Source: a virus
Strand: one strand, 5' to 3'
DNA length: 41,436 nucleotides
IMG/VR virus record: IMGVR_UViG_3300048894_000085
Span: 1-41,436 of that record
Shown: positions 2,640 through 23,709 of the stretch, one piece after another
Layout: each line of letters starts with the position of its first letter
Position numbering within the stretch: the stretch's first letter is position 1
Notes under the pieces: model-generated
Database searches by the model: none
What the model was told of the DNA's origin: nothing
What the model saw: only the letters and a program-made list of their open reading frames with translations
Position numbers and translations under genes: made by a program

Positions 2640-2927
2640 ATGCGGGCAAAACGAGTGGATGCGAATCAAAATGAGATAGTGAAATTTTTAAGAACAATCG
2701 GAGCGAGTGTGTGTAATATAAGCTCATTTGGAGAAGGTGCCCCAGATCTGATTGTTGGTTTATTTGGAAAAAACTTTTTATGGGAAGTGAAAGACGGTAA
2801 AAAATTCAAGTCACAGCAAAAGCTCACTCCGGCTGAGGAAAAGTTTCATGCAGGTTGGAAAGGACAAGTGTGTATTATTCGATCTATTGATGATGCGCTT
2901 CGTTTTATTAAAGATAATACAATATAA
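2640..2927 (+). CDS. PD-(D/E)xK nuclease (VRR-NUC / resolvase-like)
   Basis: 'GAPDLIVG...NFLWEVKDG' gives the D...E-x-K motif. 'DANQNEIVKFLRTIGASV' and 'KLTPAEEKFHAGWKGQV' are typical of small phage VRR-NUC-like proteins. GGAG lies 7 nt before ATG 2640. Confidence 0.65.
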   Translation: MRAKRVDANQNEIVKFLRTIGASVCNISSFGEGAPDLIVGLFGKNFLWEVKDGKKFKSQQKLTPAEEKFHAGWKGQVCIIRSIDDALRFIKDNTI

Positions 2928-2952
2928 TATACTATAATAATATTATATTGTA
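2918..2952. promoter_or_regulatory. All-AT 13-bp inverted repeat (tacaatataatat / atattatattgta) containing TATAAT-like hexamers
   Basis: Stem 2918-2930 / 2940-2952 with a 9-nt loop. It spans the stop of the nuclease gene and precedes the lysis cassette. Confidence 0.35.
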
Positions 2953-2984
2953 ATATATTAATAATCATTAGGAAGGGATTTTTT

Positions 2985-3140
2985 ATGATTGTAAGCCGTT
3001 GCTGTCATGCGGAGGTCATTGCTGCGTCTGCGATTTATTCTGCGCAGCTTTATGACGATTGGTATGAATGTTCTCAGTGTGAGAGAGTGTGTGCTACTAT
3101 GCAAATTAATATAACAAATAGGGATGTTGAAGATGAGTGA
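2985..3140 (+). CDS. Small Cys-rich protein, 51 aa
   Basis: 'aggaaggg' SD, then ATG. Translation is MIVSRCCHAEV...YECSQCERVCATM... The stop overlaps the endolysin start region. Confidence 0.45.
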   Translation: MIVSRCCHAEVIAASAIYSAQLYDDWYECSQCERVCATMQINITNRDVEDE

Positions 3141-3678
3141 TTTTGAATGTGCTGTCAATTATGTATTACGGAATGAAATGGGAATAGTTGAAAATCCGCA
3201 TGATAATGGGGGCATTACAAATTTTGGTATTTCATTACGATTTTTAAAAAGTCTTTCAGTTTTAGAATTAACAAAAATCAGTATTTTTGAAGAGCCTAAC
3301 GAAAAAACAATTCGTGATTTAACATTAAGTAAAGCGAAACTCATTTATTTTATGTACTTTTGGAGTGCAGCGCCTTTTGAAAAAATAATGAATCAGGAAC
3401 ATGGAAATTATATATTCGATATGGCGGTTTCAATGGGTGTGGCTCCTGCGATTAAATGTGTACAGCGTGCAAGCTGGGCAGTTCTTAAAAAAAGAGATTT
3501 AGTTGATGATGGGATACTGGGTGAAACGACATTACAAGCAATTAATGATCGTTGTGGGTTTTTGATTATGCCAGCATTGCGTTCGGAGCGTGCTGGATAT
3601 TATCGATTGATTGTGTCTAATTCTCACGATGAAAAGGAATTCATTAATGGATGGCTTAATAGAGCCTATTGCTCTTAA
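3124..3678 (+). CDS. Endolysin: GH108 N-terminal domain plus PG_binding_3 C-terminal domain
   Basis: 'FECAVNYVLRNEMGIVENPHDNGGITNFGIS' fits the GH108 signature. 'DDGILGETTLQAIN...RAGYYRLI...FINGWLNRAY' fits the PG_binding_3 signature. The start may be ATG 3133. Confidence 0.85.
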   Translation: MLKMSDFECAVNYVLRNEMGIVENPHDNGGITNFGISLRFLKSLSVLELTKISIFEEPNEKTIRDLTLSKAKLIYFMYFWSAAPFEKIMNQEHGNYIFDMAVSMGVAPAIKCVQRASWAVLKKRDLVDDGILGETTLQAINDRCGFLIMPALRSERAGYYRLIVSNSHDEKEFINGWLNRAYCS

Positions 3679-3880
3679 AAAAAATAGAGCGGATTACTAT
3701 GTACCATCAATTTTAGCTATCGGATTTTTGATTATTTATTCAGTTATCCAGATTTATTGTCTTTTACACATTGGATCAGAAGATGATATTATTAGCGCAC
3801 GATTACAAGATATTTTAATCATGATTGTGAGTTACTATTTTGGCAGTAGTCAGGAAAAACTAAAAGTAGGAAGCAATTAA
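3647..3880 (+). CDS. Small membrane protein, holin candidate
   Basis: Hydrophobic span 'VPSILAIGFLIIYSVIQIYCLL' and a second one 'ILIMIVSYYF'. It overlaps the endolysin 3' end. Confidence 0.4.
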   Translation: MDGLIEPIALKKNRADYYVPSILAIGFLIIYSVIQIYCLLHIGSEDDIISARLQDILIMIVSYYFGSSQEKLKVGSN

Positions 3881-4148: not shown

Positions 4149-4912
4149 ATAATTTCCTCTGCTAACGCGTTAAAATCTTTTGCACCGTTAGAATGCGGTG
4201 CATAAAGAAAAATGGGTAATCCTTCGATCTTCGCTTGATTGATATTTTCATCTTGACGAATAATGGTTTTCAGAATTTGGTCATAAATCATCATCTCAGA
4301 TAGTTTGGCTTCGATATATTCGTTCGTTTTAGATTTTCGTACATCCTTTTGGTTGCGTAAAATATGATAGGAATGCGCTCTGTTTTCTTTTATTTCACGC
4401 GTGACTGCAAATAAATCATACATACCTTCTAATGCATCATTTTCATAAGTAATAGGAACGATAATTTTATCTGCTGCTAAAATTGCATTCACTGTTAAAT
4501 CGCCAAGAGTAGGGCAGCAATCAATAAAACAATAATCAAACTGATCTTTTATTTTATGAAGTTGACGATATAAAAGAGTTTCACGATAAGGCCGTGAACT
4601 CATTTCACGTTGCGCCATAGCTAAATCAATACGTGCGGGCATAATTGATAAATATTGAGCTATTTCTCGATTATCACTGACTGACATAATAGCACGGGAT
4701 GGATGGGATATTCTCTGTAAAATAACGTCTGAGACTGTATAAGCATCTTTTAAGTGAGTATCTGGAATGGTGCCTTTAGTTGCATTGCCACTCGGATCAA
4801 GATCGACTAATAAAGTACGTTTTGATTTTGTCGCAAAACAATAAGCGAGATTATAAGCGCACGCTGTTTTACCTACGCCCCCTTTTTGATTAATTAAAGC
4901 TATGATTTTCAT
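4136..4912 (-). CDS. parA: ParA/Soj-family partition ATPase
   Basis: Deviant Walker A 'NQKGGVGKT', 'LLVDLDPSGNAT', 'IDCCP' and 'VPI' motifs. 258 aa. Confidence 0.9.
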   Translation of the reverse strand: MKIIALINQKGGVGKTACAYNLAYCFATKSKRTLLVDLDPSGNATKGTIPDTHLKDAYTVSDVILQRISHPSRAIMSVSDNREIAQYLSIMPARIDLAMAQREMSSRPYRETLLYRQLHKIKDQFDYCFIDCCPTLGDLTVNAILAADKIIVPITYENDALEGMYDLFAVTREIKENRAHSYHILRNQKDVRKSKTNEYIEAKLSEMMIYDQILKTIIRQDENINQAKIEGLPIFLYAPHSNGAKDFNALAEEIICLN

Positions 4913-7492: not shown

Positions 7493-7678
7493 TTATGCCC
7501 TTATTAGTTCTTCAATAGTATTGACTTGCTTAGAGAAACGTACTTCAAAGCCGAGTTTCTGCATGGTTTGCATATCGGTAGTACTAAACGTCTTTTTGCC
7601 TGTAAGCTGAGCAAAGAGCTTACGTGTTTCACCCATGATTAGCTCGCGGGTGTTAGCTGAAATGCGGATTAGTTTCAT
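7493..7678 (-). CDS. Hypothetical protein, 61 aa
   Basis: Starts MKLIRISANTRELI. Its 5' 58 nt are homologous to 6929-6992. Confidence 0.5.
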   Translation of the reverse strand: MKLIRISANTRELIMGETRKLFAQLTGKKTFSTTDMQTMQKLGFEVRFSKQVNTIEELIRA

Positions 7679-7938
7679 TAGATTAACTCCTCTTTTCGTA
7701 GTTCACATATAGGCTTGCCGTTTTTTTTAGAGATAATGTACAAGGTGTTTTCATCTCCGATAGGATCGAATTCAACATGATTCTGAGATTGTGGTTTAAT
7801 ACCTATTTCCTTAAATATCTCTTTATCAGTTAATATATCGAGATTTAATGTATAAATGCCTTGATAATAATAATCATTAACTTGATATCCGTCTTTATCA
7901 TTGCCCCATAGATCGTATGTGAATAGTCTGTATTTCAT
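7678..7938 (-). CDS. Hypothetical protein, 86 aa
   Basis: Start MKYRLFTYDLWGNDKDGYQV lies one nt after the upstream stop. The longer 111-aa version in the ORF track would overlap the upstream gene. Confidence 0.5.
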   Translation of the reverse strand: MKYRLFTYDLWGNDKDGYQVNDYYYQGIYTLNLDILTDKEIFKEIGIKPQSQNHVEFDPIGDENTLYIISKKNGKPICELRKEELI

Positions 7939-7939
7939 A

Positions 7940-8101
7940 TTAAGCCTCGTTAATGAAGTATTTAAGGTTTTCGTCTTGTAATCTGATACGGAGCTTTTGG
8001 GCGTAGTCTTCAATCGTTCTTAGTTCGCCCACTGTTAATTCATTTAATATTTCTTTTAGCTTAGCCTTACGATCTGATTGTGCGATTGTTTCAGTAGTCA
8101 T
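7940..8101 (-). CDS. Hypothetical protein, 53 aa
   Basis: Start MTTETIAQS is preceded by AGGA 8 nt upstream. First gene of the minus-strand operon. Confidence 0.45.
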   Translation of the reverse strand: MTTETIAQSDRKAKLKEILNELTVGELRTIEDYAQKLRIRLQDENLKYFINEA

Positions 8102-8134
8102 GTTGTTTGTCCTATATAATGTTAATGAAATGCT

Positions 8135-8163
8135 AATATAATACATTAATAATATAATAGCAA
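8135..8163 (-). promoter_or_regulatory. Candidate promoter TTGCTA-17-TATATT (minus strand)
   Basis: Reverse complement of 8158-8163 and 8135-8140. About 30 nt upstream of ATG 8101. Confidence 0.4.
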
Positions 8164-8189
8164 TAGATAAGTGACATTATTTTATCGTG

Positions 8190-8218
8190 TTGTATCTTAT
8201 TGATTGATTAGTTATAAT
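8190..8218 (+). promoter_or_regulatory. Candidate promoter TTGTAT-17-TATAAT (+ strand), divergent from 8135-8163
   Basis: ttgtat at 8190-8195 and tataat at 8213-8218. 20 nt upstream of ATG 8239. Confidence 0.5.
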
Positions 8219-8238
8219 CGCTTGAATTAATCAATGGA

Positions 8239-8505
8239 ATGATAATAATGAGTAATTTGGTGCAGTGTGGCTGTTGTAGAGGACAGAAAAAGATTATTGG
8301 GTTAGGCAATATGAGTGTGGATTGCTTTGGATGTAAAGGGGTTGGATTTGTTGAGCGGTTGGCTTTGAAGGTTGAAGCTGAGGTTACACCAAACGTGGTT
8401 ATTACTGAATATAGCGACGAGCCAAGCCATGAAGTGTTTCAGAGTGAGATTGCTAAGAAGCTGGCTAAGCGGGTTAATGTGGGTAGGCGAAAGAAAGTGG
8501 CTTAG
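8239..8505 (+). CDS. Small protein with DnaJ-type CxxCxGxG zinc-finger motifs
   Basis: 'CGCCRGQK' and 'CFGCKGVG' at the N-terminus. Basic C-terminus. Confidence 0.55.
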   Translation: MIIMSNLVQCGCCRGQKKIIGLGNMSVDCFGCKGVGFVERLALKVEAEVTPNVVITEYSDEPSHEVFQSEIAKKLAKRVNVGRRKKVA

Positions 8506-8518
8506 ATGAAATTACCTA

Positions 8519-8545
8519 TAGTTAAGTGAAGTTAATAGAAGTTAG
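8519..8545. repeat. Three AAGTTA boxes spaced exactly 10 bp apart, upstream of terS
   Basis: tagttaa (8519), aagttaa (8529) and aagttag (8539). Confidence 0.4.
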
Positions 8546-8597
8546 TGTATTTTGAGAGTAGATCATAATATGTATAATACCTCAGTAAGGTTGCAAT

Positions 8598-9035
8598 ATG
8601 ATGCGAAAACCTTTAACGCCAATGCAATATTCATTCTGTAATGAATACATCAAGAATGGTTTTAATGCTTATCAAGCTGCGTTACATGCTGGTTATAGTG
8701 AAAGCTATGCTAATACTCAAATGGGCGCCTTAATGAATAAACCTGTCATTAAAGATCGCTTAATTAAAGCTTATAAGAAAATGGAAAACGCTCAGATTGA
8801 TAAGCTTGCAATCACATTCACTGATAAAGCTAACATACTGTTACGCATTATCTATGATGTGATACCTAAAGATGGCTCAGAGCCTAAGCGAGCATACTAT
8901 AAGGATGCGATTAAGGCTATGGCTGAGCTAAACAAGATGCAAGGTGATTACGCACCTGAGAAACGCATGAACATGACAGTGAATGCAACGCTTGATAAGC
9001 TCACTGAAGCACGCAAAGCGTATGAGGAGTTCTAA
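8598..9035 (+). CDS. terS: Terminase small subunit (Terminase_2-like)
   Basis: 'LTPMQYSFCNEYIKNGFNAYQAALHAGYSESYANTQMGALMNKPVIKDRL' matches the conserved N-terminal HTH signature of Terminase_2 small subunits. Confidence 0.8.
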   Translation: MMRKPLTPMQYSFCNEYIKNGFNAYQAALHAGYSESYANTQMGALMNKPVIKDRLIKAYKKMENAQIDKLAITFTDKANILLRIIYDVIPKDGSEPKRAYYKDAIKAMAELNKMQGDYAPEKRMNMTVNATLDKLTEARKAYEEF

Positions 9036-9086
9036 GCTATTGATTCGTCTTGTGAATATAAATGTAATAAAATATAATATAATGTA

Positions 9087-9115
9087 TTGACAATGTAATA
9101 CATTATATTTATAAT
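9087..9115 (+). promoter_or_regulatory. Perfect consensus sigma70 promoter TTGACA-17-TATAAT
   Basis: ttgaca at 9087-9092, a 17-nt spacer, and tataat at 9110-9115. Confidence 0.7.
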
Positions 9116-9121
9116 ACTCTC

Positions 9122-9456
9122 ATACATTAACTAACGAGGTGAAGCAATGAGATACCAACTAAACAAGATGATCCTAACGATACTTTGGAATGCAAACAGA
9201 TTGAAGATGATAAGCATCAAGACTCAACTAAGACTAACGAGACTGTGTGGGATGTAACCCACGCAGCGTGGCGTGGTGAGGCTCCAAACGGGGCAGGGGT
9301 GGCATGGAGCGGGGGATAGGATCTGGAAATGCAGGGGTGAGATTAAAGAATGTAAAGGTGTGCTGCATCCTTAAACTCCTATTTAACATTTAGGTTTTTA
9401 GAAAAATCCTTAAACTCTTAAACAACTTTTATATATTTTAGAAAATTCAGGTAGAT
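9122..9456 (+). ncRNA. Candidate non-coding transcript or long leader; locally G/GC-rich (9245-9340) in an AT-rich genome
   Basis: Lies downstream of the consensus promoter. The only ATG ORF is 36 aa with implausible composition. The protein-like frame has no start codon. Contains stem-loops gtggg/cccac, ccacg/cgtgg and atgcag/ctgcat, four G4-5 runs, and a 12-bp direct repeat ATCCTTAAACTC at 9367 and 9406. Confidence 0.35.
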
Positions 9457-9780
9457 ATGATCATAGACATAACAAAATGCAAACAAATCTCAAAAAATAA
9501 ACAACTGTATTTATTAAAAACAGACGTATTAGAAGTCTTAGGTTGGGAGAATAAAAAATTAATACAGCTAGAAAACCTAGTTATAGAAAAAAATGAAAAT
9601 ATAAACATATTAATGGATAGCATATCTATTCTAAGACGTTCTGAAGAATCCTACAGTAAATACAGCGCTATGTATGAAAAAGAAACAGCTCGTATTGAAA
9701 ATGCCTTATTTAATATGGATGAATATTTAAACAAAATAAAAGAGCGATTAGACACAATAGAAAGTAAAATTAACTATTAG
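9457..9780 (+). CDS. Coiled-coil protein, 107 aa (first of three tandem related small genes)
   Basis: Heptad-like, K/E/N-rich. C-terminus is '...LDTIESKINY'. Confidence 0.5.
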   Translation: MIIDITKCKQISKNKQLYLLKTDVLEVLGWENKKLIQLENLVIEKNENINILMDSISILRRSEESYSKYSAMYEKETARIENALFNMDEYLNKIKERLDTIESKINY

Positions 9781-9789
9781 GACAAAAAA

Positions 9790-9966
9790 ATGACAACTAA
9801 AAAAAACGATGACTTAATGCTAGAAATGATTATAGGACTAGATAAAATTTTCAAAAAAACAATGGTAGAGAATCTGGAACGAGTCTCTAAACTAGAAAAA
9901 AACCTAGAAACAATAGATAGAGAACTCACAGCACTTATAAAAAATATAGAAAATAAAATAAACTAA
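9790..9966 (+). CDS. Coiled-coil protein, 58 aa
   Basis: Not in the ORF track. Translation is MTTKKNDDLMLEMIIGLDKIFKK...LIKNIENKIN. The 'taggaca-A-rich-ATG' junction also occurs at 9978. Confidence 0.45.
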   Translation: MTTKKNDDLMLEMIIGLDKIFKKTMVENLERVSKLEKNLETIDRELTALIKNIENKIN

Positions 9967-9977
9967 TAGGACAGAAA

Positions 9978-10160
9978 ATGGCATTTAATAAAGAGTATGA
10001 AGAAAAAATTCTCGTAAAAGTAGAATTAGTAGAAAAGATTCTAGAACGAGTGTTGGTGAGAATCAGTGAAAGATTACTTAAACTAGAAGAAAATGTAAAA
10101 GATTTAAACGATTTTGCTATAAATTTGAGTGTTCGTTTAGGTATAAAGAAGGAAGAGTAA
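9978..10160 (+). CDS. Coiled-coil protein, 60 aa
   Basis: ORF with heptad-like 'VELVEKILERVLVRISERLLKLEENVKDL'. Confidence 0.5.
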   Translation: MAFNKEYEEKILVKVELVEKILERVLVRISERLLKLEENVKDLNDFAINLSVRLGIKKEE

Positions 10161-10366
10161 TGATGGATTTAAACAGATTACAGACATTAAAGACAGTCTT
10201 AAGTGACCTACACACATTAAGCAGTTTTTATACTAATGCATCACCCGGATGGACACTCATTCAGAATGCATGGCGACATATTGACAGTATTTATCATTTA
10301 GAAAAAGACACTAATTTTGATAAAAAAACCCTAGGAGTTAAACAGGATGAACATGATGAAAATTAA
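10160..10366 (+). CDS. Hypothetical protein, 68 aa
   Basis: TAATG-coupled ORF. Confidence 0.5.
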   Translation: MMDLNRLQTLKTVLSDLHTLSSFYTNASPGWTLIQNAWRHIDSIYHLEKDTNFDKKTLGVKQDEHDEN

Positions 10367-10727
10367 AATCTGGAAAGAAGGCATTACCGAATCAGAACCC
10401 AATCAAATGTATCTTAAATTGGATTATGCAAATGGTGAAGATATTATGCTATCCGCCTGTGATATGGATGGCAATTATATAGAAAAAGGGGCACATATTT
10501 TATACATTGATAGTAATTATAGAGTCGTCGTTACATTAGATGGAATCAATCCAGCTATCCCTTTAAAAACGGATCTTGAAGATCAAGTCTTAATTTATGA
10601 GGAGACTGAAATTCATAATCTTGAAAAAGGTCGTTTTATGCAAATTGCATCAAAAGACATGTTAAGGCAGATAAAAGAGAAAATCGCAGAAGTAGAGCAA
10701 CCTGATCCAATACCCCAAACTCATTGA
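10347..10727 (+). CDS. Hypothetical protein, 126 aa
   Basis: ORF preceded by 'aggag'. Confidence 0.55.
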   Translation: MNMMKIKIWKEGITESEPNQMYLKLDYANGEDIMLSACDMDGNYIEKGAHILYIDSNYRVVVTLDGINPAIPLKTDLEDQVLIYEETEIHNLEKGRFMQIASKDMLRQIKEKIAEVEQPDPIPQTH

Positions 10728-10736
10728 GTAAAAAAT

Positions 10737-10874
10737 ATGCTTACATGGTTAATTTCTTTTATATTTGCATGGATAATAGCGTTTATATTTAAATGGGATA
10801 TGTTTCAGCTGTTAGTATTTGCAGCACTATATGCTATATTCCTTACATTAAAAGAGATAAAAAGTAAATTATGA
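10737..10874 (+). CDS. Small two-TM membrane protein, 45 aa
   Basis: Translation is MLTWLISFIFAWIIAFIFKWDMFQLLVFAALYAIFLTLKEIKSKL. ATGA overlap with the next gene. Confidence 0.4.
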   Translation: MLTWLISFIFAWIIAFIFKWDMFQLLVFAALYAIFLTLKEIKSKL

Positions 10875-11317
10875 ATCTAGAAGATCAAGTCTGTTCTATT
10901 GATAATGCAAATAAACTATTTACATTAATAGGTAAAAAAGACTGTTTGTATTACCATTCTTTTAACTATAAGTCATTCTCTGATGAGCAAATCGTAGATC
11001 ATGCTATTACCATGATCCCGTGTGGTGAACATATCCCAGCCTATACATCGGATGAGTTATTAGATTTATTACCTGCTTTTATTTATTACAACCTGTTTAA
11101 GCCTCATGATTATTATTATCTACGTATAGACAAAAGAACTTATAAAGATATTCGATACTGTGCTAAATATGTCTGTAGCTCGATCGAGGGAAAAGAGATT
11201 AATAATCCTTTCTTTGAAGTGCCAAGTCCTGCTAAGTCACATGCCAGCACACTGGCTGATTGTTTAGCTGAAATGCTGATTTATCTCCTTGAAAATAAAA
11301 TGATGGATATACCATGA
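10871..11317 (+). CDS. Hypothetical protein (tandem paralogue 1)
   Basis: 'MNLEDQVCSIDNANKLF...ADCLAEMLIYLLENKMMD' parallels the next ORF. Confidence 0.6.
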   Translation: MNLEDQVCSIDNANKLFTLIGKKDCLYYHSFNYKSFSDEQIVDHAITMIPCGEHIPAYTSDELLDLLPAFIYYNLFKPHDYYYLRIDKRTYKDIRYCAKYVCSSIEGKEINNPFFEVPSPAKSHASTLADCLAEMLIYLLENKMMDIP

Positions 11318-11718
11318 AATTAGAAGAACAGGTTTGCTCACTTGAATTAGCAAAGCGTTTAAAAGAGCTTAAGATTAATCAAGAGAGCATCTTTTATTGG
11401 CGACGCTGGGTACCCATTAGAGGATCATCTTATATAACGCCTGAATGGAGTTTATCTTATTACAAAGGTTCAGATGATGATTATGAAGTCATATCAGCAT
11501 TTTCAGTTGCAGAACTAGGTGAATTATTACCTGATCTAATAAAAATAAGAGCTGAAAATTATTTCATAACCATGGATAGCGATAAATATGTTTGTTATGA
11601 GAACATGGAAAAGACCTGTGAAATACATTTCATGGATAATGGTGATGAATTCACAGAAGCGGATGCACGTGCTAAAATGCTTATTTATCTGATCGAGAAT
11701 GAATATGTGGAGAGTTAA
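11314..11718 (+). CDS. Hypothetical protein (tandem paralogue 2)
   Basis: 'MKLEEQVCSLELAKRLKEL...ADARAKMLIYLIENEYVE'. ATGA overlap with paralogue 1. Confidence 0.6.
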   Translation: MKLEEQVCSLELAKRLKELKINQESIFYWRRWVPIRGSSYITPEWSLSYYKGSDDDYEVISAFSVAELGELLPDLIKIRAENYFITMDSDKYVCYENMEKTCEIHFMDNGDEFTEADARAKMLIYLIENEYVES

Positions 11719-11839
11719 ATTGGATAACGACGTATTTGGTTTAATTACTGCTTTAATCCTATTGCTTAATTTATTTGTATTAAGCGATATAAGGTCAGAT
11801 TTACACAAAATAGCGATTAAAATAGAGATAAAGAAATGA
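11705..11839 (+). CDS. Small TM protein, 44 aa
   Basis: Translation is MWRVKLDNDVFGLITALILLLNLFVLSDIRSDL... ATGA overlap with the next gene. Confidence 0.35.
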   Translation: MWRVKLDNDVFGLITALILLLNLFVLSDIRSDLHKIAIKIEIKK

Positions 11840-12048
11840 GTGAATGGATATCAGTTGATGATAAGTTACCTGACGATTTTGAAGAAGTTTTATATTTTTG
11901 CATGAATGATCATGGGAAAAAAACAATGATGATGGGGCACAGAGAAAAAGGATACTGGACACATTGCTATATGTTTTATTCAACTGTCACACTTAATAAA
12001 TTAGTTACAGTCACGCATTGGATGCCGTTACCGGAGTATCCACAATGA
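11836..12048 (+). CDS. DUF551-like protein
   Basis: 'WISVDDKLPDDFEEVL...VTHWMPLPEYP' matches the DUF551 pattern. Confidence 0.7.
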   Translation: MSEWISVDDKLPDDFEEVLYFCMNDHGKKTMMMGHREKGYWTHCYMFYSTVTLNKLVTVTHWMPLPEYPQ

Positions 12049-12149
12049 TCGAGACTATACTCATTTCCTTTGCATTAAGCGCATTAGCCATTTTATTATA
12101 TCGATTCTTTAGAGTCGTTTATTGGATATGGAAAATGGGGAAATATTAA
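12045..12149 (+). CDS. Small TM protein, 34 aa
   Basis: Translation is MIETILISFALSALAILLYRFFRVVYWIWKMGKY. ATGA overlap upstream, and the stop abuts the next ATG. Confidence 0.35.
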   Translation: MIETILISFALSALAILLYRFFRVVYWIWKMGKY

Positions 12150-12320
12150 ATGATGATCGATGTCTGTACGCAATGCGGTGGCAGTGGCGAGATGCGTGTA
12201 CCTCAAACATATATGACTTGTCGTTGCTGCAGAGGACGAGATAAATTCAGGCCTTGTAAAGCTTGTCATGGCAAAGGCGTTGAGCATATAAAAACTAATA
12301 ATAAAAATGGAGATGTTTAG
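12150..12320 (+). CDS. Mini-protein with three DnaJ-type CxxCxGxG zinc-finger motifs, 56 aa
   Basis: 'CTQCGGSG', 'CRCCRGRD' and 'CKACHGKG'. The opposite-strand ORF 12096-12287 in the track is the antisense shadow. Confidence 0.5.
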   Translation: MMIDVCTQCGGSGEMRVPQTYMTCRCCRGRDKFRPCKACHGKGVEHIKTNNKNGDV

Positions 12321-12323
12321 CTA

Positions 12324-12551
12324 ATGCACAAAGTAGAAATTAATGAAGAGGATAATGAGTTGTTGAGTTTATTGATAGAATCTATTTCTCATTTGATGAC
12401 GATAGTAAGTAAAAGATCACCACCCGATGTTGATTTAACTAAACACTTAGGTGAATCTTTTAAATCATTAGGCCATTTCTGTCTCAGAATGAGCGTGATT
12501 AGAGGAGAAACTGATGAAGTCAAATATCACAACACAATTCATCCCCACTGA
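12324..12551 (+). CDS. Hypothetical protein, 75 aa
   Basis: ORF only. Confidence 0.5.
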   Translation: MHKVEINEEDNELLSLLIESISHLMTIVSKRSPPDVDLTKHLGESFKSLGHFCLRMSVIRGETDEVKYHNTIHPH

Positions 12552-13173
12552 TGGCATAACAGATCTTAGTCCTGAATTATTAGAGAGCAATCGTTTAAAA
12601 TTGTTTCACGCAGAACATTATAAAAAATATAAGTGGAACGATTTAAGACTATTTTGTCATTATTATGCGCGTTATGGCTTACCTACGATTGAATTAGTCG
12701 ATTATATTAAAATGCTGATTCATGGGCGCTCTGTAATCGAGATAGGAGCTGGAGCGGGCGATCTTGGATATCATCTCGGTATTAAGATGACAGACTCCTA
12801 TCAACAGACAGATCCTCTTATTAAGATGATATATGAGGCCATGGGACAACCTGCAATTACATATCCGCCTGATGTGGAGAAGATTGATGCGCTCGATGCA
12901 GTGATAAAATATCAACCAAAAGTGGTTGTAGCATCATGGATTACATCTCACTCACCAACTCAGCAAGTTTACTGCAGTAATCCAGAAGGTATTAAAGAGG
13001 CGAAGATATTAGATCTGATTGATACTTTTATCATTATCGGTAATATCGATGTGCATGGCACTAAACCTATTCTTAAAATAGGGCATGAAGTTATTCAGGA
13101 ACCATGGATTCTATCTCGTGCTAAAAACCAAAGTCATAATTGTATTTATATATGGGATAAACACAATGTCTGA
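12514..13173 (+). CDS. Possible SAM-dependent methyltransferase-fold protein
   Basis: Motif-I-like 'VIEIGAGAGDLGYHLG'. No clear catalytic motif was recognised. Confidence 0.45.
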   Translation: MKSNITTQFIPTDGITDLSPELLESNRLKLFHAEHYKKYKWNDLRLFCHYYARYGLPTIELVDYIKMLIHGRSVIEIGAGAGDLGYHLGIKMTDSYQQTDPLIKMIYEAMGQPAITYPPDVEKIDALDAVIKYQPKVVVASWITSHSPTQQVYCSNPEGIKEAKILDLIDTFIIIGNIDVHGTKPILKIGHEVIQEPWILSRAKNQSHNCIYIWDKHNV

Positions 13174-13369
13174 TGAATATAATAAAGGCTTTAATGATGC
13201 GATTAATAAAATAATATTCTATTGCAGAGAGCAAGCTGAAAATTATGCCAGACTTTATACTGAAGCGCCAAAAGACTTAAAGTCTTCATTTTCTCATAAA
13301 GCGATAGCTATAGTGGATTTTAGGATATTGATTGAAGATTTATTTCAAACAGAGGTTATTGATGATTGA
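13166..13369 (+). CDS. Hypothetical protein, 67 aa
   Basis: Start MSDEYNKGF overlaps the upstream stop by 8 nt. Confidence 0.5.
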   Translation: MSDEYNKGFNDAINKIIFYCREQAENYARLYTEAPKDLKSSFSHKAIAIVDFRILIEDLFQTEVIDD

Positions 13370-13685
13370 CAAATGCCAACGCTGTGATACAGAAGACGAT
13401 GAATTAAGAACGTTATTCATGTCATGTGGATATGATATGAGCGAACTTGAATTACCTTTTATGATAAAAACAGATGGATCATTTGCTTTATTTGTTTGCA
13501 AGCGATGCCGGTCTGACTGGATGCATTTTATCAGAATATGGTTTCAAACGAATGCGGCTTCTAATGAATCTATAGGAAGTGGAATTTTTATCAGAGATTT
13601 AGGTTGCAGTCGTGAAGTATCTGAGGAGACATTTAAAAAAATAAATCCTGATGTTGAACCCACGAGATTTATCGATGATCAGTAA
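13362..13685 (+). CDS. Cys-rich hypothetical protein, 107 aa
   Basis: 'MIDKCQRCDT...FVCKRCRSDW'. GAGG SD before ATG 13362. Confidence 0.5.
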   Translation: MIDKCQRCDTEDDELRTLFMSCGYDMSELELPFMIKTDGSFALFVCKRCRSDWMHFIRIWFQTNAASNESIGSGIFIRDLGCSREVSEETFKKINPDVEPTRFIDDQ

Positions 13686-14121
13686 GCGTTGCAAAAAACA
13701 CGGTGATTTAAAGCCAGAAGATATAAGAATAGATAAAAAATATGGTCGAGAATATAAAAATTGTGTCATATGTAGAAGAGAGTATCAACAAAAACAGACA
13801 TTAAGCGGTAAAAGAAAAGAACTATCCAGAAAAAGAAGACTTAAACCTGATTTTTTAGAAAAACGTAGGATGTACGATAAAAATTATCATGAACGCAGAT
13901 TAATAGTCGCTAAGGCTATGTATGAAAGAAAAAAAGATGATCCTTGTTTTAAAGAGAAAAATAATAAAAGAAGTCTAAATAGGTATAAGGTAATAAAAGA
14001 ATCATTTCATGATTCATATGTTAAAAAAGTATTACGATTTCACAAAGATGCAACACCTGAGATCTGTGAATTAAAAAGACAAATCATTTTACTGAAAAGA
14101 ATAATAAGGGCTAAAAGATGA
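13675..14121 (+). CDS. Zinc-ribbon/basic/helical family protein (paralogue C)
   Basis: 'RCKKHGDL...NCVICRR', a K/R-rich middle, then 'FHDSYVKKVL...TPEICELKRQIILLKRII'. Confidence 0.7.
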   Translation: MISKRCKKHGDLKPEDIRIDKKYGREYKNCVICRREYQQKQTLSGKRKELSRKRRLKPDFLEKRRMYDKNYHERRLIVAKAMYERKKDDPCFKEKNNKRSLNRYKVIKESFHDSYVKKVLRFHKDATPEICELKRQIILLKRIIRAKR

Positions 14122-14402
14122 AATGCAAGCATGATCCGACTTTAACAATAGGCCCAATCGGTATGTATCATTGCCCTGAATGTGGTGATATGGTGCTTGC
14201 TGGTATGGCGCATGGTGATCAGGATGAAGCTGAAAAAGAGTATGGCGAATTTTGTGATCGTGAGATGGAAAAAATGATGGTATGGCTCAATGAGCGATTA
14301 CCAAAAGATGAGTTCATCAGTATAACTCAAACAATGAAAAATACATTGATTGAGTTATGGTTAAGAGCGGAACCCGTAATGCGACAACAAGGGTGCTTTT
14401 AA
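14118..14402 (+). CDS. Hypothetical protein with a CPxC knuckle, 94 aa
   Basis: 'YHCPECGDMV'. ATGA-coupled. Confidence 0.55.
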   Translation: MKCKHDPTLTIGPIGMYHCPECGDMVLAGMAHGDQDEAEKEYGEFCDREMEKMMVWLNERLPKDEFISITQTMKNTLIELWLRAEPVMRQQGCF

Positions 14403-14974
14403 TGGAAACGTGGTTTACGAGTGACACACATTTTGGCCATAGTAATATTCTTGAATATGAGAAAGAAGCGCGTCCCTTTGAAACAATAGAGAGAATGAAT
14501 GAAGAACTCATTATGCGTTGGAACTCAGTCGTCCATCCCCATGATACTATTTACCATCTTGGTGATTTTTGTTTTGGTAAACATAACCTTAGCATTGCTA
14601 CTCGACTTCATGGGAAAAAAAGGCTTATCCTGGGAAATCATGATCTATACCCTTGCAGCGATTATTTGCAGTATTTTAATAAAGTATTTGGTGTGACTTA
14701 TTGGAAAAATTGTATATTAAGTCATATGCCAATTCATCCTACTTTATTAGGATCACGATTTTTTTTAAATCTACACGGACATTTGCATAGTAAGCATGTT
14801 AGAAGAAATGTATTTCATATGATGGAAATTAAAACAGATAAAGGCCCTGTTCAATTTTCAAAATTTTTTCATGAAGAGAATGATCCTAATTATTTTAATG
14901 TGAGTTGTGAGCAAAATAACTTGACCCCGATCCACAGTGATGAAATTATGAAGCGATTGAAAGAGTTGGAATAA
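14402..14974 (+). CDS. Metallophosphoesterase (calcineurin-like phosphatase fold)
   Basis: 'FTSDTHFGH', 'YHLGDF', 'LGNHD' and 'HGHLH' motifs in canonical order. TAATG-coupled start METWF. Confidence 0.8.
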   Translation: METWFTSDTHFGHSNILEYEKEARPFETIERMNEELIMRWNSVVHPHDTIYHLGDFCFGKHNLSIATRLHGKKRLILGNHDLYPCSDYLQYFNKVFGVTYWKNCILSHMPIHPTLLGSRFFLNLHGHLHSKHVRRNVFHMMEIKTDKGPVQFSKFFHEENDPNYFNVSCEQNNLTPIHSDEIMKRLKELE

Positions 14975-14975
14975 T

Positions 14976-15077
14976 GGCAGTCGCGGCGTGGACAGTGACA
15001 CGCTAGAAACTTGCAGTACAGTACCCGCGTCGTAGTTGTAATCTGTACATAGCCAGTGCAATTCTGGCCGACTGCCT
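14976..15077 (+). ncRNA. tRNA-like element of uncertain identity (8-bp acceptor-like stem, T-arm-like hairpin, no canonical anticodon arm)
   Basis: ggcagtcg (14976-83) pairs with cgactgcc (15069-76). T-arm-like gccag-tgcaatt-ctggc at 15052-68. D-like stem gcgtg/cacgc. The central 48 nt fold as gtacag/ctgtac rather than as a 5-bp stem with a 7-nt loop. Confidence 0.2.
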
Positions 15078-15114
15078 TCCATTTTGTTGGAGTTAACAAT
15101 ATGGTTATGAAAAT

Positions 15115-15186
15115 TGGCATGTAGCATAAAGGTAATGCGGCATCCTGTTAAGGTGCTCAGTGCTGGTTCGAGTCCAGCCATGCCAG
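15115..15186 (+). tRNA. tRNA-Asn (anticodon GTT)
   Basis: Manual cloverleaf. Acceptor tggcatg/catgcca; D arm gcat-aaaggta-atgc; anticodon arm gcatc-ctGTTaa-ggtgc; variable region tcagt; T arm gctgg-ttcgagt-ccagc; discriminator G. U1-A72 and G73 match bacterial tRNA-Asn. Confidence 0.9.
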
Positions 15187-15388
15187 AAAGTTTATGGCCG
15201 AGGATAAGTTGAGACGTCCAGCTATTAGCTAATAACTGAAAGTAGGCCACTTGATTTAAATTGATACATTGGGTGAGTAAAAAGAAGGAGGCAATGTATT
15301 TAAATAAAGGAGGTGCGGATATTCGAGGCACTGTTGATTCTATTTTTTTACATCTCTGGGCGGCTTAAACCTATCTATTCTAAACTAT

Positions 15389-15451
15389 GAGATTGATGGT
15401 ATAGCATCTATAATCCCATAGTCGCAGGTTCAAATCCTGCATGTATCACCA
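15389..15451 (+). pseudogene. Degenerate tRNA: intact T arm, 3' acceptor strand and encoded ACCA, with no matching 5' half
   Basis: gcagg-ttcaaat-cctgc-atgtatc-ACCA at 15424-15451 is canonical. The upstream 'gatggtatagca' resembles a D loop, but no anticodon stem or local 5' acceptor strand can be paired. Confidence 0.45.
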
Positions 15452-15477
15452 AATTAAAGTTTAACAAGGAAGTTAAA

Positions 15478-17007
15478 TTGAAAGACGCATCCACGGAGAG
15501 GGATCGTTTACAGCGTTCACTCTTGGCATTTACCCAAGATTTTTATTACCTTCGAACGGGTAGACGGTTTGATTTATCACAGCCTGTAGGGCGAGAGAGT
15601 CATTATCTGACTATCTGTAGGGCTTTGGTTAAAGTCATCAAGGGCGAAACAAAACGCCTGATGATCAATGTGCCACCTCGCTATGGTAAGACTGAGCTGC
15701 TCATTGAATTTGTCGCATGGGCATTATCTCAATATCCTGATTCTAATTTTCTCTATGTCTCCTATTCATTGGGTTTAGCCAAAAAACAAACAAAGACCAT
15801 TCGTCAGATTGTCGCTATGAATGAATATCGGGATTTGTTTGATGTAGCTTTATCGGGTGACACGGCAGCGCAAGGCAACTTTGAAACATCGCTCGGGGGC
15901 AGTGTCTACGCGGCTGGTGCGGATGGTGAAATAACAGGTCGTGGTGCAGGTATCAAAGGCAGTAATCGTTTTGGTGGCTGCATTGTTATTGATGATATTC
16001 ATAAACCATCTGAAGTCAGTTCTGACACGATGCGTAAAACGGTGAATGAATGGTATTTCAATACACTGCAATCCCGTCTGAATGATCCAGAGAGCACACC
16101 GATCATATTCATCGGCCAACGGCTTCATGAGGATGATCTGGCTGCAAATTTAATCAAGTCAGGTGATTGGGAGACGATTGTCATACCGGCGCTTGATGGG
16201 GCTGGAAATGCCTTACATCCTGAAATGCATAGTGTGACGATGCTGCGTAATATGCAGGAAACAATGCCCTATGTATTTTCTTCACAATACCAGCAAGATC
16301 CACTCCCTGCAGGAGGCGGTATCTTCAAACCTGAATGGTTCTTTCAGATGGATGATGAGCCTAATATTATTGCGACATTCATTACGGCTGACACTGCTGA
16401 AACCTCGAAAGATTATAACGATGCTACCGTATTCAGTTTCTTCGGTATCTATAAAATTGCGCATGGTGATATAGAGAGTGACATATTGGCCTTGCATTGG
16501 ATCGATTGTTTAGAGCTTCGTATTGAACCTAAAGATTTGGAGAAAGAGTTTTTAGCTTTTTATGCATCCTGTATGCGTCACCGGATTAAGCCACGCATTG
16601 CGGCAGTTGAGAGAAAGAGCACAGGTGTGACTCTGGCATCAGTCCTTAAGAATATTCGTGGTCTTACCATGATGGATGTGGAGCGTACAAAGCTCTCTGG
16701 TAATAAGACAACACGGTTTTTAGAGATACAACCTATTATTGCGAGTAAGCAAGTTTCATTGCCGTCCGATGGTAAGCATACGGTGATGGTATTGGAACAC
16801 ATGAGAAAGATCACGGCTAATGATACACATCGTCATGATGATATTGCAGATACTTTGTATGATGGTGTAAAGTTAGGCATTATAGACAATGTAATATTGT
16901 CACAAACCCCCGGTAAAGTCCAAGAGGACGAGCGTGTAGCGCGGGGGATAATGGGCGCATTTCATCGCGTTCTCCAATTAAGAAGTAAGCGTTATGCGGG
17001 TTTGTAG
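15478..17007 (+). CDS. terL: Terminase large subunit
   Basis: Walker A 'PPRYGKTEL', Walker B 'CIVIDDIHK', and C-terminal nuclease-type acidic motifs ('FITADTAE', 'HDDIADT'). 509 aa. TTG start preceded by 'aaggaag'. Confidence 0.9.
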   Translation: MKDASTERDRLQRSLLAFTQDFYYLRTGRRFDLSQPVGRESHYLTICRALVKVIKGETKRLMINVPPRYGKTELLIEFVAWALSQYPDSNFLYVSYSLGLAKKQTKTIRQIVAMNEYRDLFDVALSGDTAAQGNFETSLGGSVYAAGADGEITGRGAGIKGSNRFGGCIVIDDIHKPSEVSSDTMRKTVNEWYFNTLQSRLNDPESTPIIFIGQRLHEDDLAANLIKSGDWETIVIPALDGAGNALHPEMHSVTMLRNMQETMPYVFSSQYQQDPLPAGGGIFKPEWFFQMDDEPNIIATFITADTAETSKDYNDATVFSFFGIYKIAHGDIESDILALHWIDCLELRIEPKDLEKEFLAFYASCMRHRIKPRIAAVERKSTGVTLASVLKNIRGLTMMDVERTKLSGNKTTRFLEIQPIIASKQVSLPSDGKHTVMVLEHMRKITANDTHRHDDIADTLYDGVKLGIIDNVILSQTPGKVQEDERVARGIMGAFHRVLQLRSKRYAGL

Positions 17008-21504: not shown

Positions 21505-22845
21505 ATGGCATTACCGACAAATATTTTGCAACAGGTGCAAACGTACCAACGCTCAGCACTTGCATTGCTTGAAAACCTCAATTGTTTTATTTCCACAGCT
21601 AATACAAAGTTTAAAGATTTCGATAAGATAACCGCGAATTTAGGCAGTACAGTGACGTTCGACTTGCCTCCTCGTTTTACAACTGCCGCAGGTTTAGTTG
21701 CAAGTTTCCAACCTGCAGTTCAGCGCGTATTACCACTGACTTGCGATCAAGCAACTAACACATCCTATGCGTTTACTGCTCAAGATCGTATCTTTAACGT
21801 TGAAAAAGACACTGAATCCTATATGGAGCAATTCGGTCGTTCTGCAACAGCTGAAATGGGTGCAAATACTGAAGCGAATTTAGCATTGAATGCAAATTCA
21901 CATGTACCAGTGAATACCGTTGTCAATGGTCAAACTGTTCCAACAGGTGCATTGCATACAGAATCAGGCCCTTATCGTTTCTTCGGAAATGGAACAACGG
22001 CTATCAATTCTTTCCAGCAATTAGCACAGATGATTGCAAATTTCAAAAACTACGGTGCGGTTAAAGAAGGCATTAAAGTTTATCTGCCTGATACCATCGT
22101 TCCCGCTATTGTCGGTTCTGGTTTAAATCAATTTGCACCAGATCGCAATAATGAAATTGCAATGTCTTGGGAAGTCGGAAAGTTTGGGACTCCTCCTGTC
22201 ATGTATTATCAGTCTAACTTATTGCCTATTCATACAGCTGGAACCATTGGTGATACGGCAGCGCCTAATAATGTGATGACAGTGGTTAGCACCAATGATC
22301 CAACAGGTGCAGCAATTACCCAAATTACATTCACAGAACCTACCAGTGGAACTGATGCAAATGCAATTAAATCAGGTGATTTAATTCAATTTAACGATGG
22401 TGTAGCCGGTCAAGCCAATATCCGTTATTTAACTTTCATCGGACATACTATTTCCAATCAACCTGTACAAGTCAGAGCAACTGCTGATGCTGCAACTGTT
22501 GCAGGTACTGTTGTTATTAATATAACACCTACTCTTCAATCAACTGCGGGCGGTAATCAAAATATCAGCCGCAATATCGTAGCTGGTATGACTGCAACAC
22601 CTTTACCTTCCCACAGATGTGGATTGGTCGTGGGTGGCAATGCATTGTACATGGCTATGCCAAGACTACCTGATCAATATCCATTCCCAACTTCTGCTGA
22701 ATACGATTCTGATACTGGTGTGTCTTTGCGTATGACATACGGTTCACTCTTCGGTCAGAACCAAATGGGTATGATTCACGATTGCACATGGGGTTCAGTA
22801 CTTGTACCTGAATATTCCATGCGTATGGCGTTCCCACTGAGTTAA
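21505..22845 (+). CDS. Major capsid protein (P22-coat-like / HK97 fold)
   Basis: 446 aa from MALPTNILQQ (GGAGA SD). Position is after the scaffold and before a strong terminator. Overall layout is like P22 gp5-family coats. Confidence 0.8.
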   Translation: MALPTNILQQVQTYQRSALALLENLNCFISTANTKFKDFDKITANLGSTVTFDLPPRFTTAAGLVASFQPAVQRVLPLTCDQATNTSYAFTAQDRIFNVEKDTESYMEQFGRSATAEMGANTEANLALNANSHVPVNTVVNGQTVPTGALHTESGPYRFFGNGTTAINSFQQLAQMIANFKNYGAVKEGIKVYLPDTIVPAIVGSGLNQFAPDRNNEIAMSWEVGKFGTPPVMYYQSNLLPIHTAGTIGDTAAPNNVMTVVSTNDPTGAAITQITFTEPTSGTDANAIKSGDLIQFNDGVAGQANIRYLTFIGHTISNQPVQVRATADAATVAGTVVINITPTLQSTAGGNQNISRNIVAGMTATPLPSHRCGLVVGGNALYMAMPRLPDQYPFPTSAEYDSDTGVSLRMTYGSLFGQNQMGMIHDCTWGSVLVPEYSMRMAFPLS

Positions 22846-22858
22846 TAGGGCCCCTCAC

Positions 22859-22885
22859 GGCGATTAAGGAGTGACCTTAATCGCC
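22859..22885 (+). terminator. Stem-loop after the coat gene
   Basis: 11-bp perfect stem ggcgattaagg / ccttaatcgcc with loop agtga, followed by 'gcccttatttg'. Confidence 0.6.
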
Positions 22886-22914
22886 GCCCTTATTTGATTA
22901 ACATATTTTAAAGG

Positions 22915-23709
22915 ATGAATACTATGAGCCAGCTAGATCCGATCGTAAATGGAGCTTCACTTTATATTAATGGGCTTATCATTAGCAATAATGGTACAAC
23001 CCCTCACACAAAACTTGATATTGCTGCAGGTCAAGCGCGTGATTCTAATAATTTGGTTGATATGATACTGGGTGATTATCTTAATGAAGGCACTGGAACA
23101 GCGAATGCTGCGACTACACTGAATTTTTCTGTTAAAGGCGCTAATGGTATTGATGTCGGTACAATTGCAGCAACTACTTGGTACTACATTTTTATCATTG
23201 CAGATTCCAGCAATAAAAATGCAACTGCAACTATTGCATCTTTAAGTGCTACAGCTCCTACACTTCCTTTTGGATATGATTCCATTAGATGTATTGGATC
23301 TGTAAAAACAGATGGATCTGCATTCCTTTTGAAGTTCTATGAAACTAATAACAATAGCACCAATCGCTTTTTCGAGTGGGATGCACCGATTGCTGTTACT
23401 GTGACAGATTCTGGTACTTCAGCTACTTATTCTGCGATGGATTTTTCAACCGGTGTTCCTGTCAGTAATTATGGAAAAGTAACTGTTTATTATATATGGG
23501 ATCCAAATGCAGCGGGTGATATCTTAGATTTCACGCCAGCTGGTGCAACTGGTGATTATCTTGTCAATACCGCAATCACTACAGCAATTCAAGATGGCAC
23601 ATTCTCGATTAAACCATTAACTGTTTCTTCAGTTCCTAAAGTGAGCTACAAAATTAGTGCAGGCACTTTAACTGGTGTGAAAGTGATGGGCTATGACATG
23701 AATTTGTAA
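22915..23709 (+). CDS. Virion-associated protein, 264 aa
   Basis: ORF in the structural block. T/S/A/G-rich, beta-type composition. The start may be ATG 22924. Confidence 0.55.
   Translation: MNTMSQLDPIVNGASLYINGLIISNNGTTPHTKLDIAAGQARDSNNLVDMILGDYLNEGTGTANAATTLNFSVKGANGIDVGTIAATTWYYIFIIADSSNKNATATIASLSATAPTLPFGYDSIRCIGSVKTDGSAFLLKFYETNNNSTNRFFEWDAPIAVTVTDSGTSATYSAMDFSTGVPVSNYGKVTVYYIWDPNAAGDILDFTPAGATGDYLVNTAITTAIQDGTFSIKPLTVSSVPKVSYKISAGTLTGVKVMGYDMNL

Follow-up and report, generated by a model that had tools for sequence, protein, structure and literature searches.

A conserved non-coding DNA element downstream of the small terminase gene in a soil-phage clade: a candidate packaging-initiation site

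The phage record IMGVR_UViG_3300048894_000085 is a complete IMG/VR record, and the window analyzed here is its whole stretch of 41,436 nt, with a genome GC content of 36%. The two ends of the record are an exact 127-nt repeat, which we read as an assembler overlap and hence as a circular genome of 41,309 bp. The region under study lies between terS, the gene of the small terminase, and the first gene of a variable block of small genes; its features are collected in Table 1. An earlier note on this DNA had treated the interval 9087-9456 as a single anomaly, a consensus promoter with no credible ORF behind it. In fact, the interval consists of two units joined together, a promoter cassette and, after it, a conserved DNA element. 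The cassette is found between terS and the conserved core in only two of the eight lineages of the clade (the window and L008), whereas in the other six there is none.

Table 1. Features in and around the terS-proximal region of the window (positions of the 41,436-nt stretch).
Feature	Position	Strand	Remarks
terS, small terminase, SPP1/SF6 G1P type, HTH N-terminus	8598-9035	+	Pfam Terminase_2 7.6e-14; PHROG 51
Operator-like perfect inverted repeat, 13-bp arms (9076-9088 / 9097-9109), 8 bp apart	9076-9109		100% complementary
Sigma-70 promoter TTGACA-17-TATAAT	9087-9115	+	sole 12/12 consensus match in the 41.4-kb genome
Shine-Dalgarno GAGGTG (9136-9141) and 36-codon ATG ORF (9147-9257), orphan, putative	9136-9257	+	good Shine-Dalgarno spacing
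Overlapping open frame, no ATG, TTG at 9185 (44 aa)	9143-9319	+	stop is the TAG inside conserved GGATAG
GC-rich 5' flank of the element	9245-9320		G runs at 9290, 9296, 9311; first GCAGGGGTG copy 9293-9301
Conserved non-coding core, ~90 nt	9310-9401	+	just downstream of terS in 8/8 lineages
Box A, ATCTGGAAAT in the window	9321-9330		
Second GCAGGGGTG copy	9331-9339		
TAAAGGTGTG block	9353-9362		
CTGCATCC block	9363-9370		
Two tandem 39-nt AT-rich repeats (9367-9405 / 9406-9444)	9367-9444		72% identical, each beginning ATCCTTAAACTC
107-aa coiled-coil protein gene, first of the variable small-gene block	9457-9780	+	protein present in public collection

The TerS profile of the clade matches SF6 small-terminase structures (3zqp, 2cmp, 4zc3) at ~1e-11, the portal is of the P22 type, and the large terminase (TerL) is closest to that of the CP-T1 group, with ~35% identity with Vibrio phage CP-T1 and Pseudoalteromonas phages. 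Genomes of the CP-T1 group have been reported as circularly permuted (PMC3391216). Taken together, the P22-type portal, the CP-T1-like TerL and the circular assembly are consistent with headful packaging, which is the likely mode in the window phage. No close cultured relative was found among plasmid and phage records. Scans guided by the TerS protein retrieved seven more lineages, L003, L007, L008, L035, L036, L038 and L039, whose terS genes are 44-63% identical; with the window these form the eight lineages of the clade (L037 is the same contig as L007). Furthermore, L034 is a second strain, from a different metagenome, 98.8% identical to the window overall. The relatives searched for terL (G001, G002 and G003) carry a gene of 74-78% identity at a distance of 5-6 kb downstream from terS, the same arrangement as in the window; having the two terminase genes apart is thus a clade-wide trait.

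Several observations on these genomes stand by themselves. terL (74-78% identity) is far more conserved than terS (44-63%), and the two are separated by variable small genes in the window (8598-17007) as in G001, G002 and G003. In G001, the complete 42.2-kb contig of L007, the terL match (21990-23492) contains one in-frame TAG, which could reflect a sequencing error, a split gene or recoding. The variable block of L008 holds a tRNA gene on the minus strand (4727-4797; Rfam RF00005, 52 bits), and that of the window holds a tRNA-Asn gene (15114-15187). Just upstream of terS, L008 carries three tandem copies of a ~17-nt, TCTCATGTGNTAATGAT-like unit (2330-2400), and downstream of terS in L007 there are ~840 nt (2924-3762) devoid of any plus-strand ORF of at least 30 aa, rich in TAGTAAT/TAATAG-like repeats and much longer than the conserved core.

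The promoter at 9087-9115, singled out in the earlier note as the best of the genome, is borne out as the single exact consensus of the whole sequence. Shuffled genomes hold 0.11 full-consensus matches on average, and 11 of 100 shuffles contain one; a full-consensus promoter, taken by itself, is only mildly improbable. A promoter of the same kind, TTGACT-17-TATTCT with a TG ahead of the second hexamer, stands at the corresponding position after terS in L008, and its leader resembles that of the window (ACTCTCA..CATTAAC), with marginal pairwise similarity (z 1.9). Sigma-70 hexamers, a 17-bp spacer and a position kept in one relative are all found here. The inverted repeat listed in Table 1 overlaps the –35 hexamer and the spacer, and four AATGTAWT half-sites fall within the 44 nt of 9061-9104, the genome total being 20 as compared with 10 expected. 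Since the palindrome and the half-site cluster look like an operator, the promoter is probably under repressor control. One of these half-sites (AATGTATTGACA) is directly adjoined by the –35 hexamer, and a related AATATAATACATT box occurs at 8135-8147, where a divergent control region separates the leftward genes from the ZnF-terS operon; judging from the boxes, one repressor may govern both this region and the promoter region at 9061-9129.

No terminator was predicted between 9116 and 9456, and the gene at 9457 is probably the first of any size to be transcribed from the 9087 promoter. The upstream unit (9076-9257) can be pictured as an accessory cassette in which a palindromic operator would control a strong sigma-70 promoter, with a short leader and the 36-codon orphan ORF behind it, and its transcription would most likely run through the element into the small-gene block. 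Its role is most likely an ordinary one, namely the operator-controlled expression of the 36-codon ORF, if that ORF is real.

The statement that the promoter is followed by no credible ORF was too strong, because a good ribosome-binding site precedes the 36-codon ORF and L008 has, in the corresponding slot, an unrelated 44-codon ORF, followed by a 26-codon ORF in a TAATG stop/start overlap. The 36-codon ORF has no match in Pfam or PHROG, and an exact look-up of both window ORFs in a collection of 15 billion proteins returned neither. The overlapping frame that had been called protein-like and startless does lack an ATG, but the TTG at 9185 had been overlooked. This frame is probably not a gene: no homologue emerged from tblastn against phages, from a scan of viral contigs with its frame-2 peptide or from a search of 5.8 billion protein clusters, and when the region and its frames were compared with 50,697 phage records by blastn and tblastn, nothing meaningful came up. 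Short open frames of L003 and L008 stop at the same TAG, their sequences being unrelated and that of L003 having no start codon. A programmed –1 frameshift joining the two window frames was considered and dropped, as inspection of the surroundings of 9159-9167 revealed no canonical X XXY YYZ heptamer, and the clustering of the L008 44-aa ORF with glycosyltransferases proved spurious. An error of this one assembly had also been envisaged as a source of the frame arrangement; the second strain, L034, is unchanged over 9052-9364, which argues against such a one-off error.

Downstream of these frames lies the element proper (~9290-9445). It is composed of GGGGTR motifs, a CATCTGYAAAA box, a TAAAGGGGT/CTTATCC block and tandem repeats specific to each lineage. 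The blocks conserved across the family are box A (CATCTGYAAAA), a GGGT block ~20 bp on, T(A/T)AAGGGGT and CTTATCC(C)AAT, and motifs of this kind suggest a DNA site bound by protein. In the window genome GCAGGGGTG is found only at 9293 and 9331, 38 bp apart, and GGGGTR has only 10 occurrences in 41 kb. GGGGTR clusters around box A in every lineage, in varying orientation: in the window and in L036 it stands on the plus strand at –24 and +14 from the anchor, the two sites of the window being its GCAGGGGTG copies, and in L007 and L039 it lies on the minus strand of the 5' flank. The 12-bp direct repeat reported earlier was found again, its two ATCCTTAAACTC copies, at 9367 and 9406, being the heads of the 39-nt tandem duplication. 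At the same place the relatives carry tandem repeats of their own, 16-31 nt long, such as TATCCCAATACA in L035, three copies of ATCCCAAAA in L036 and CAATTTTTCAGATT in L039. No A-tract phasing or bend signal was detected, the power of AA/TT at a period of 10-11 being at the 15th-62nd percentile of the genome. Partial resemblances to a DnaA box, Xer/dif, IHF, Chi and CsrA-sponge sites were short, judged by eye and not conserved across lineages, and these readings were dropped. Two relatives have a further box A: in L035 it lies at +86, and in L039 (1112-1155) it is an exact second copy (CATCTACAAAA), 173 nt downstream of the first, and a perfect TATAAT, a GGAG ribosome-binding site and an ATG come immediately after it.

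The element is traced through the clade by sequence profiles. Matches placed directly after terS were obtained with nhmmer in L003, L036, L008, L007, L035, L039 and the second strain L034, and the element of L038 was placed by eye. A four-sequence profile recovered three more, each directly after terS (L036, 5.8e-11; L035, 1.4e-07; L039, 4.6e-06). When each sequence was left out in turn, the six detected relatives were recovered with E-values from 4.5e-06 to 2.4e-17, whereas the window, at the expected place (9312-9398), was the weakest family member detected, with E = 0.041, and L038 was not recovered. Pairwise local alignments of the 420-nt gap of the window with L003, L036 and L039 gave a collinear stretch, 9312-9430, at z 2.3-2.8. 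On these comparisons the family is solid, and the window copy is one of its two most divergent members.

There is one copy of the element per genome, and it stays with terS while the genes downstream of it differ between lineages. Its ATCTG anchor lies ~25-70 nt after the terS stop codon in six lineages; in the window and L008 the distance is ~290 nt, because here the cassette of promoter and small ORF sits between. By eye, the intergenic regions upstream of terS share no motif among the eight lineages. Neither the element nor analogous GC-rich or GGGGTR clusters were found downstream of more distant terS genes (at most 38% identity), and degenerate DNA patterns run against viral and genome contigs gave matches at about a rough chance estimate, none of which passed the profile. 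The second strain matches the window without a difference over 7500-9050 and 9052-9364, carries a GC to AT change at 9365-9366 that brings this stretch closer to the family consensus CTTATCC, and diverges by ~3% from 9432 on; the identity up to 9364 and the divergence after 9432 indicate that a sharp recombination (mosaic) boundary lies at the element's 3' edge.

The 5' flank of the element has a composition of its own. The GC-rich anomaly pointed out in the earlier note is real, with a GC content of up to 0.60 against 0.36 for the genome, as are the four runs of four to five G (9290, 9296, 9311 and 9334), which fall within 48 nt; nowhere else in the genome are four G or C runs so tightly spaced, and the same stretch is the highest G4Hunter peak of the genome (2.16, the runner-up being 1.4). 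The hairpins proposed there (GTGGG/CCCAC, CCACG/CGTGG with its CGTGG arm present twice, and GCTCC/GGAGC) do exist, but they are no more than chance would give, since the 335-nt RNA 9122-9456 folds no better than its shuffles (z = +0.76). The flank is GC-rich in relatives too, being G-rich in the window, L003 and L038 and C-rich in L039, L007 and L035, and the C-rich flanks carry the reverse complements of the motifs of the G-rich ones; in particular, GGGTGGCGTG of L038 is the reverse complement of a stretch of the L039 flank in 10 of 10 positions, a score reached by 1 of 500 shuffles. The G4Hunter values follow, with 2.16 in the window and 2.32 in L003 and the sign flipped in L039 (–1.88), L007 (–1.24) and L035 (–1.2). 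A conserved G-quadruplex was rejected, as C tracts replace the G tracts in these three. That the motifs hold their position but not their strand points to recognition by a DNA-binding protein, and argues against a base-paired RNA or a conserved RNA quadruplex.

Tests of coding and of RNA structure bear on several of the rival explanations. In the core no frame is open across lineages, each of the six being stopped in several of them, and over 9143-9401 the frames are interrupted and without homologues. The Rfam scan suggested in the earlier note returned nothing at E ≤1 in the window region or the seven related loci, and the covariation it had also proposed to look for did not appear, RNAalifold predicting 0 pairs in one alignment and 3 pairs in another. 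Eight single-sequence folds gave z from –1.3 to +0.8 and no two predicted shapes alike, so that none of the 9 stretches folded in all shows an energy excess. An abundant small RNA, one of the possibilities first raised, is disfavored by these results and by the lack of a predicted terminator before 9457, and is further weakened by the fact that in six of the eight lineages the conserved part follows terS with no promoter cassette; neither the window nor its relatives show an independent small RNA gene or Rfam family. A broader proposal is that the element acts as RNA, as an unstructured or G-quadruplex-forming terS 3' UTR, as the leader of the 9087 transcript or as a processed small RNA, and it would then affect mRNA stability, processing or the translation of the next gene. 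This proposal gains from the very strong promoter that reads into the element in the window and L008, from the at least four G tracts on the transcribed strand in the window and L003 (G4Hunter 2.16 and 2.32) and from the constant co-orientation of the element with terS. We nevertheless hold it to be improbable, in view of the negative structural results (Rfam, consensus structure, covariation, folding excess and terminator) and of the flip of the G-rich strand in L039, L007 and L035, which leaves no conserved RNA feature or quadruplex in the flank. A regulatory leader for the downstream block is borne out in part, as the promoter most likely reads into the 9457 gene; the element, however, stays with terS while the downstream genes differ. 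A decayed gene had also been suggested, and for 9147-9290 this is possible, although neither frame has a homologue in the searches run. In its fuller form, in which a small gene at 9147-9320 has decayed or been frameshifted and the similarity downstream is a functionless leftover, we give this explanation little credence: an ATG with a good ribosome-binding site does open the 36-aa frame, a longer open frame does lie in the –1 phase, and the L008 slot has intact 44- and 26-codon ORFs, but the sequence is unchanged in the second strain, the core has no conserved frame, and neutral DNA would not remain alignable where TerS identity is only 44-63%.

Other explanations accept a DNA site and assign it to another function. 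The element could be an array of transcription-factor sites, or a phage-specific promoter or insulator, that marks the start of the variable accessory block. It falls, in every lineage, right where the conserved terS module gives way to the variable small genes; in most lineages the GGGGTR block is followed 16-18 bp on by a weak TAT-type hexamer, and the second box A of L039 stands right before a promoter-like hexamer and ribosome-binding site. Set against this are the single copy per genome, with none of the 8 other GGGGTR sites promoter-like, the unrelated downstream genes of the different lineages, and the normal sigma-70 promoter of the window and L008, which lies upstream of the element and does not replace it. 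We regard this regulatory function as unlikely, though worth keeping in mind. A search for a GGGGTR-type promoter family elsewhere in the genome found none. The GC-rich stretch could alternatively be a cos site with adjacent TerS-binding boxes, in the style of lambda and the staphylococcal cos phages. In AT-rich phages, a GC-rich island beside terS is typical of a cos site, and the order seen here, with conserved boxes and repeats after a variable GC-rich part, recalls the cosN-cosB arrangement. Such a site would be very surprising here, considering that the portal is of the P22 type, that TerL has its nearest studied relatives in phages whose genomes are reported to be circularly permuted (PMC3391216), that no HNH gene was seen beside terS and that none of the clade's contigs terminates at the element.

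The reading that we put forward, tentatively and at somewhat less than an even chance, is that the element at ~9290-9445 is a candidate TerS recognition and packaging-initiation (pac) site of a headful phage. The earlier note had listed a pac region after terS among its options, and the comparative data favor it for this stretch and not for the whole interval. A unique cis site adjoining terS and inherited with it is what the comparison reveals, directly 3' of the gene in all eight lineages, and an element that is unique, non-coding, similar to a protein site and passed on with terS alone, in a phage whose packaging genes are of the headful type, is best explained as pac. The element would thus act at the DNA level as a cis site passed on with terS; a ring-shaped TerS would assemble on it through its HTH domains, positioning TerL for the first headful cut. 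We infer from the comparison of sequences that TerS would be the binding protein and that cutting would start at the element. Some considerations weigh against a pac site. The site of another DNA-binding protein would give an identical comparative pattern and, as terS is 5-6 kb from terL in the clade, nearness to terS need not mean packaging. Moreover, the window copy is a weak member of the family (leave-one-out E = 0.041, pairwise z below 3) and, by analogy, a pac site would be expected on the 5' side of terS, where the studied phages with this type of TerS (SPP1 and SF6) have it; the lack of A-tract phasing also speaks against such a site. A bolder version of the packaging site, which we think improbable and offer as one joint reading, is a new type of packaging signal, a flippable array of GGGGTR half-sites read by a ring of TerS HTH domains 3' of terS. 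In this joint reading a cut at the edge of the hypervariable block would also drive the shuffling of modules there, and the repressor-controlled transcription of the window and L008 would couple the accessibility of the packaging site to transcription.

The packaging signal is unknown for most uncultured phages, and the element offers a concrete 130-bp candidate in a soil-phage clade. If confirmed as pac, it would mean that the SPP1-type TerS family can use a site 3' of its own gene, and it would help to predict the DNA that these phages can transduce. As to the apparent promoter with nothing behind it, this turns out to be no new RNA gene but a small accessory cassette that lies between terS and the site accompanying it. 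The cassette recalls the late leader of lambdoid phages (PR' - 6S RNA - tR', with Q antitermination) in its strong, constitutive-looking promoter and in the few hundred nt without a sizeable gene that precede late or accessory genes. Unlike that leader, it has no predicted terminator, no Q-like gene was identified, the cassette is present in only two of eight lineages and the window leader holds a ribosome-binding site and a 36-codon ORF.

With the element taken as a candidate pac site, known packaging sites offer the closest comparisons and, in P22 and SPP1/SF6, precedents for a pac in or beside terS. The pac site of phage ICP1 has been predicted in an intergenic region, between gp1 and gp2, where an 88-bp stretch resembles an 89-bp fragment of PLE with a short identical core; deletions of the PLE mimic were assayed by transduction, and the ICP1 site is backed by read coverage (bioRxiv 10.1101/2024.04.22.590561). 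The candidate site is likewise intergenic, whereas phage, terminase and sequence are unrelated. In P22, pac consists of 22 bp inside gene 3, which is terS (PMC8022706, PMC11260489). The window phage shares with P22 a virion module of the same kind, as seen in its portal, and likely headful packaging, and its candidate site would be inherited with terS as well. The P22 site lies in coding sequence and serves a TerS of another family, whereas that of the window is intergenic and longer. The string ATCTG, which we take to be part of the P22 pac sequence, also occurs in the element and is too short to mean anything.

A parallel with a TerS of the same family is offered by the Bacillus phages SPP1 and SF6, in which the G1P small terminase binds a pac region (pacL-pacC-pacR) that covers the terS promoter together with the 5' end of the gene and contains repeated boxes (PMC4737164). 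The differences concern place and sequence: the candidate element is 3' of terS, whereas SPP1 pac is at the promoter and start of the gene, and there is no sequence similarity and no A-tract phasing in the window element. As to the short direct-repeat boxes and the intrinsically bent arm of the SPP1 site, the window has repeats, namely the two copies of GCAGGGGTG and the 39-nt tandem repeat, and its AA/TT periodicity at 10-11 bp is unremarkable. The likeness lies in the TerS family itself (Terminase_2, with an N-terminal HTH matching the SF6 structures) and in the general design, a composite non-coding site of more than 100 bp with short repeated boxes, adjoining terS (PMC4737164). By this comparison, a pac site in the element would most likely be a site of a known kind, found here in a new place and with a new sequence.
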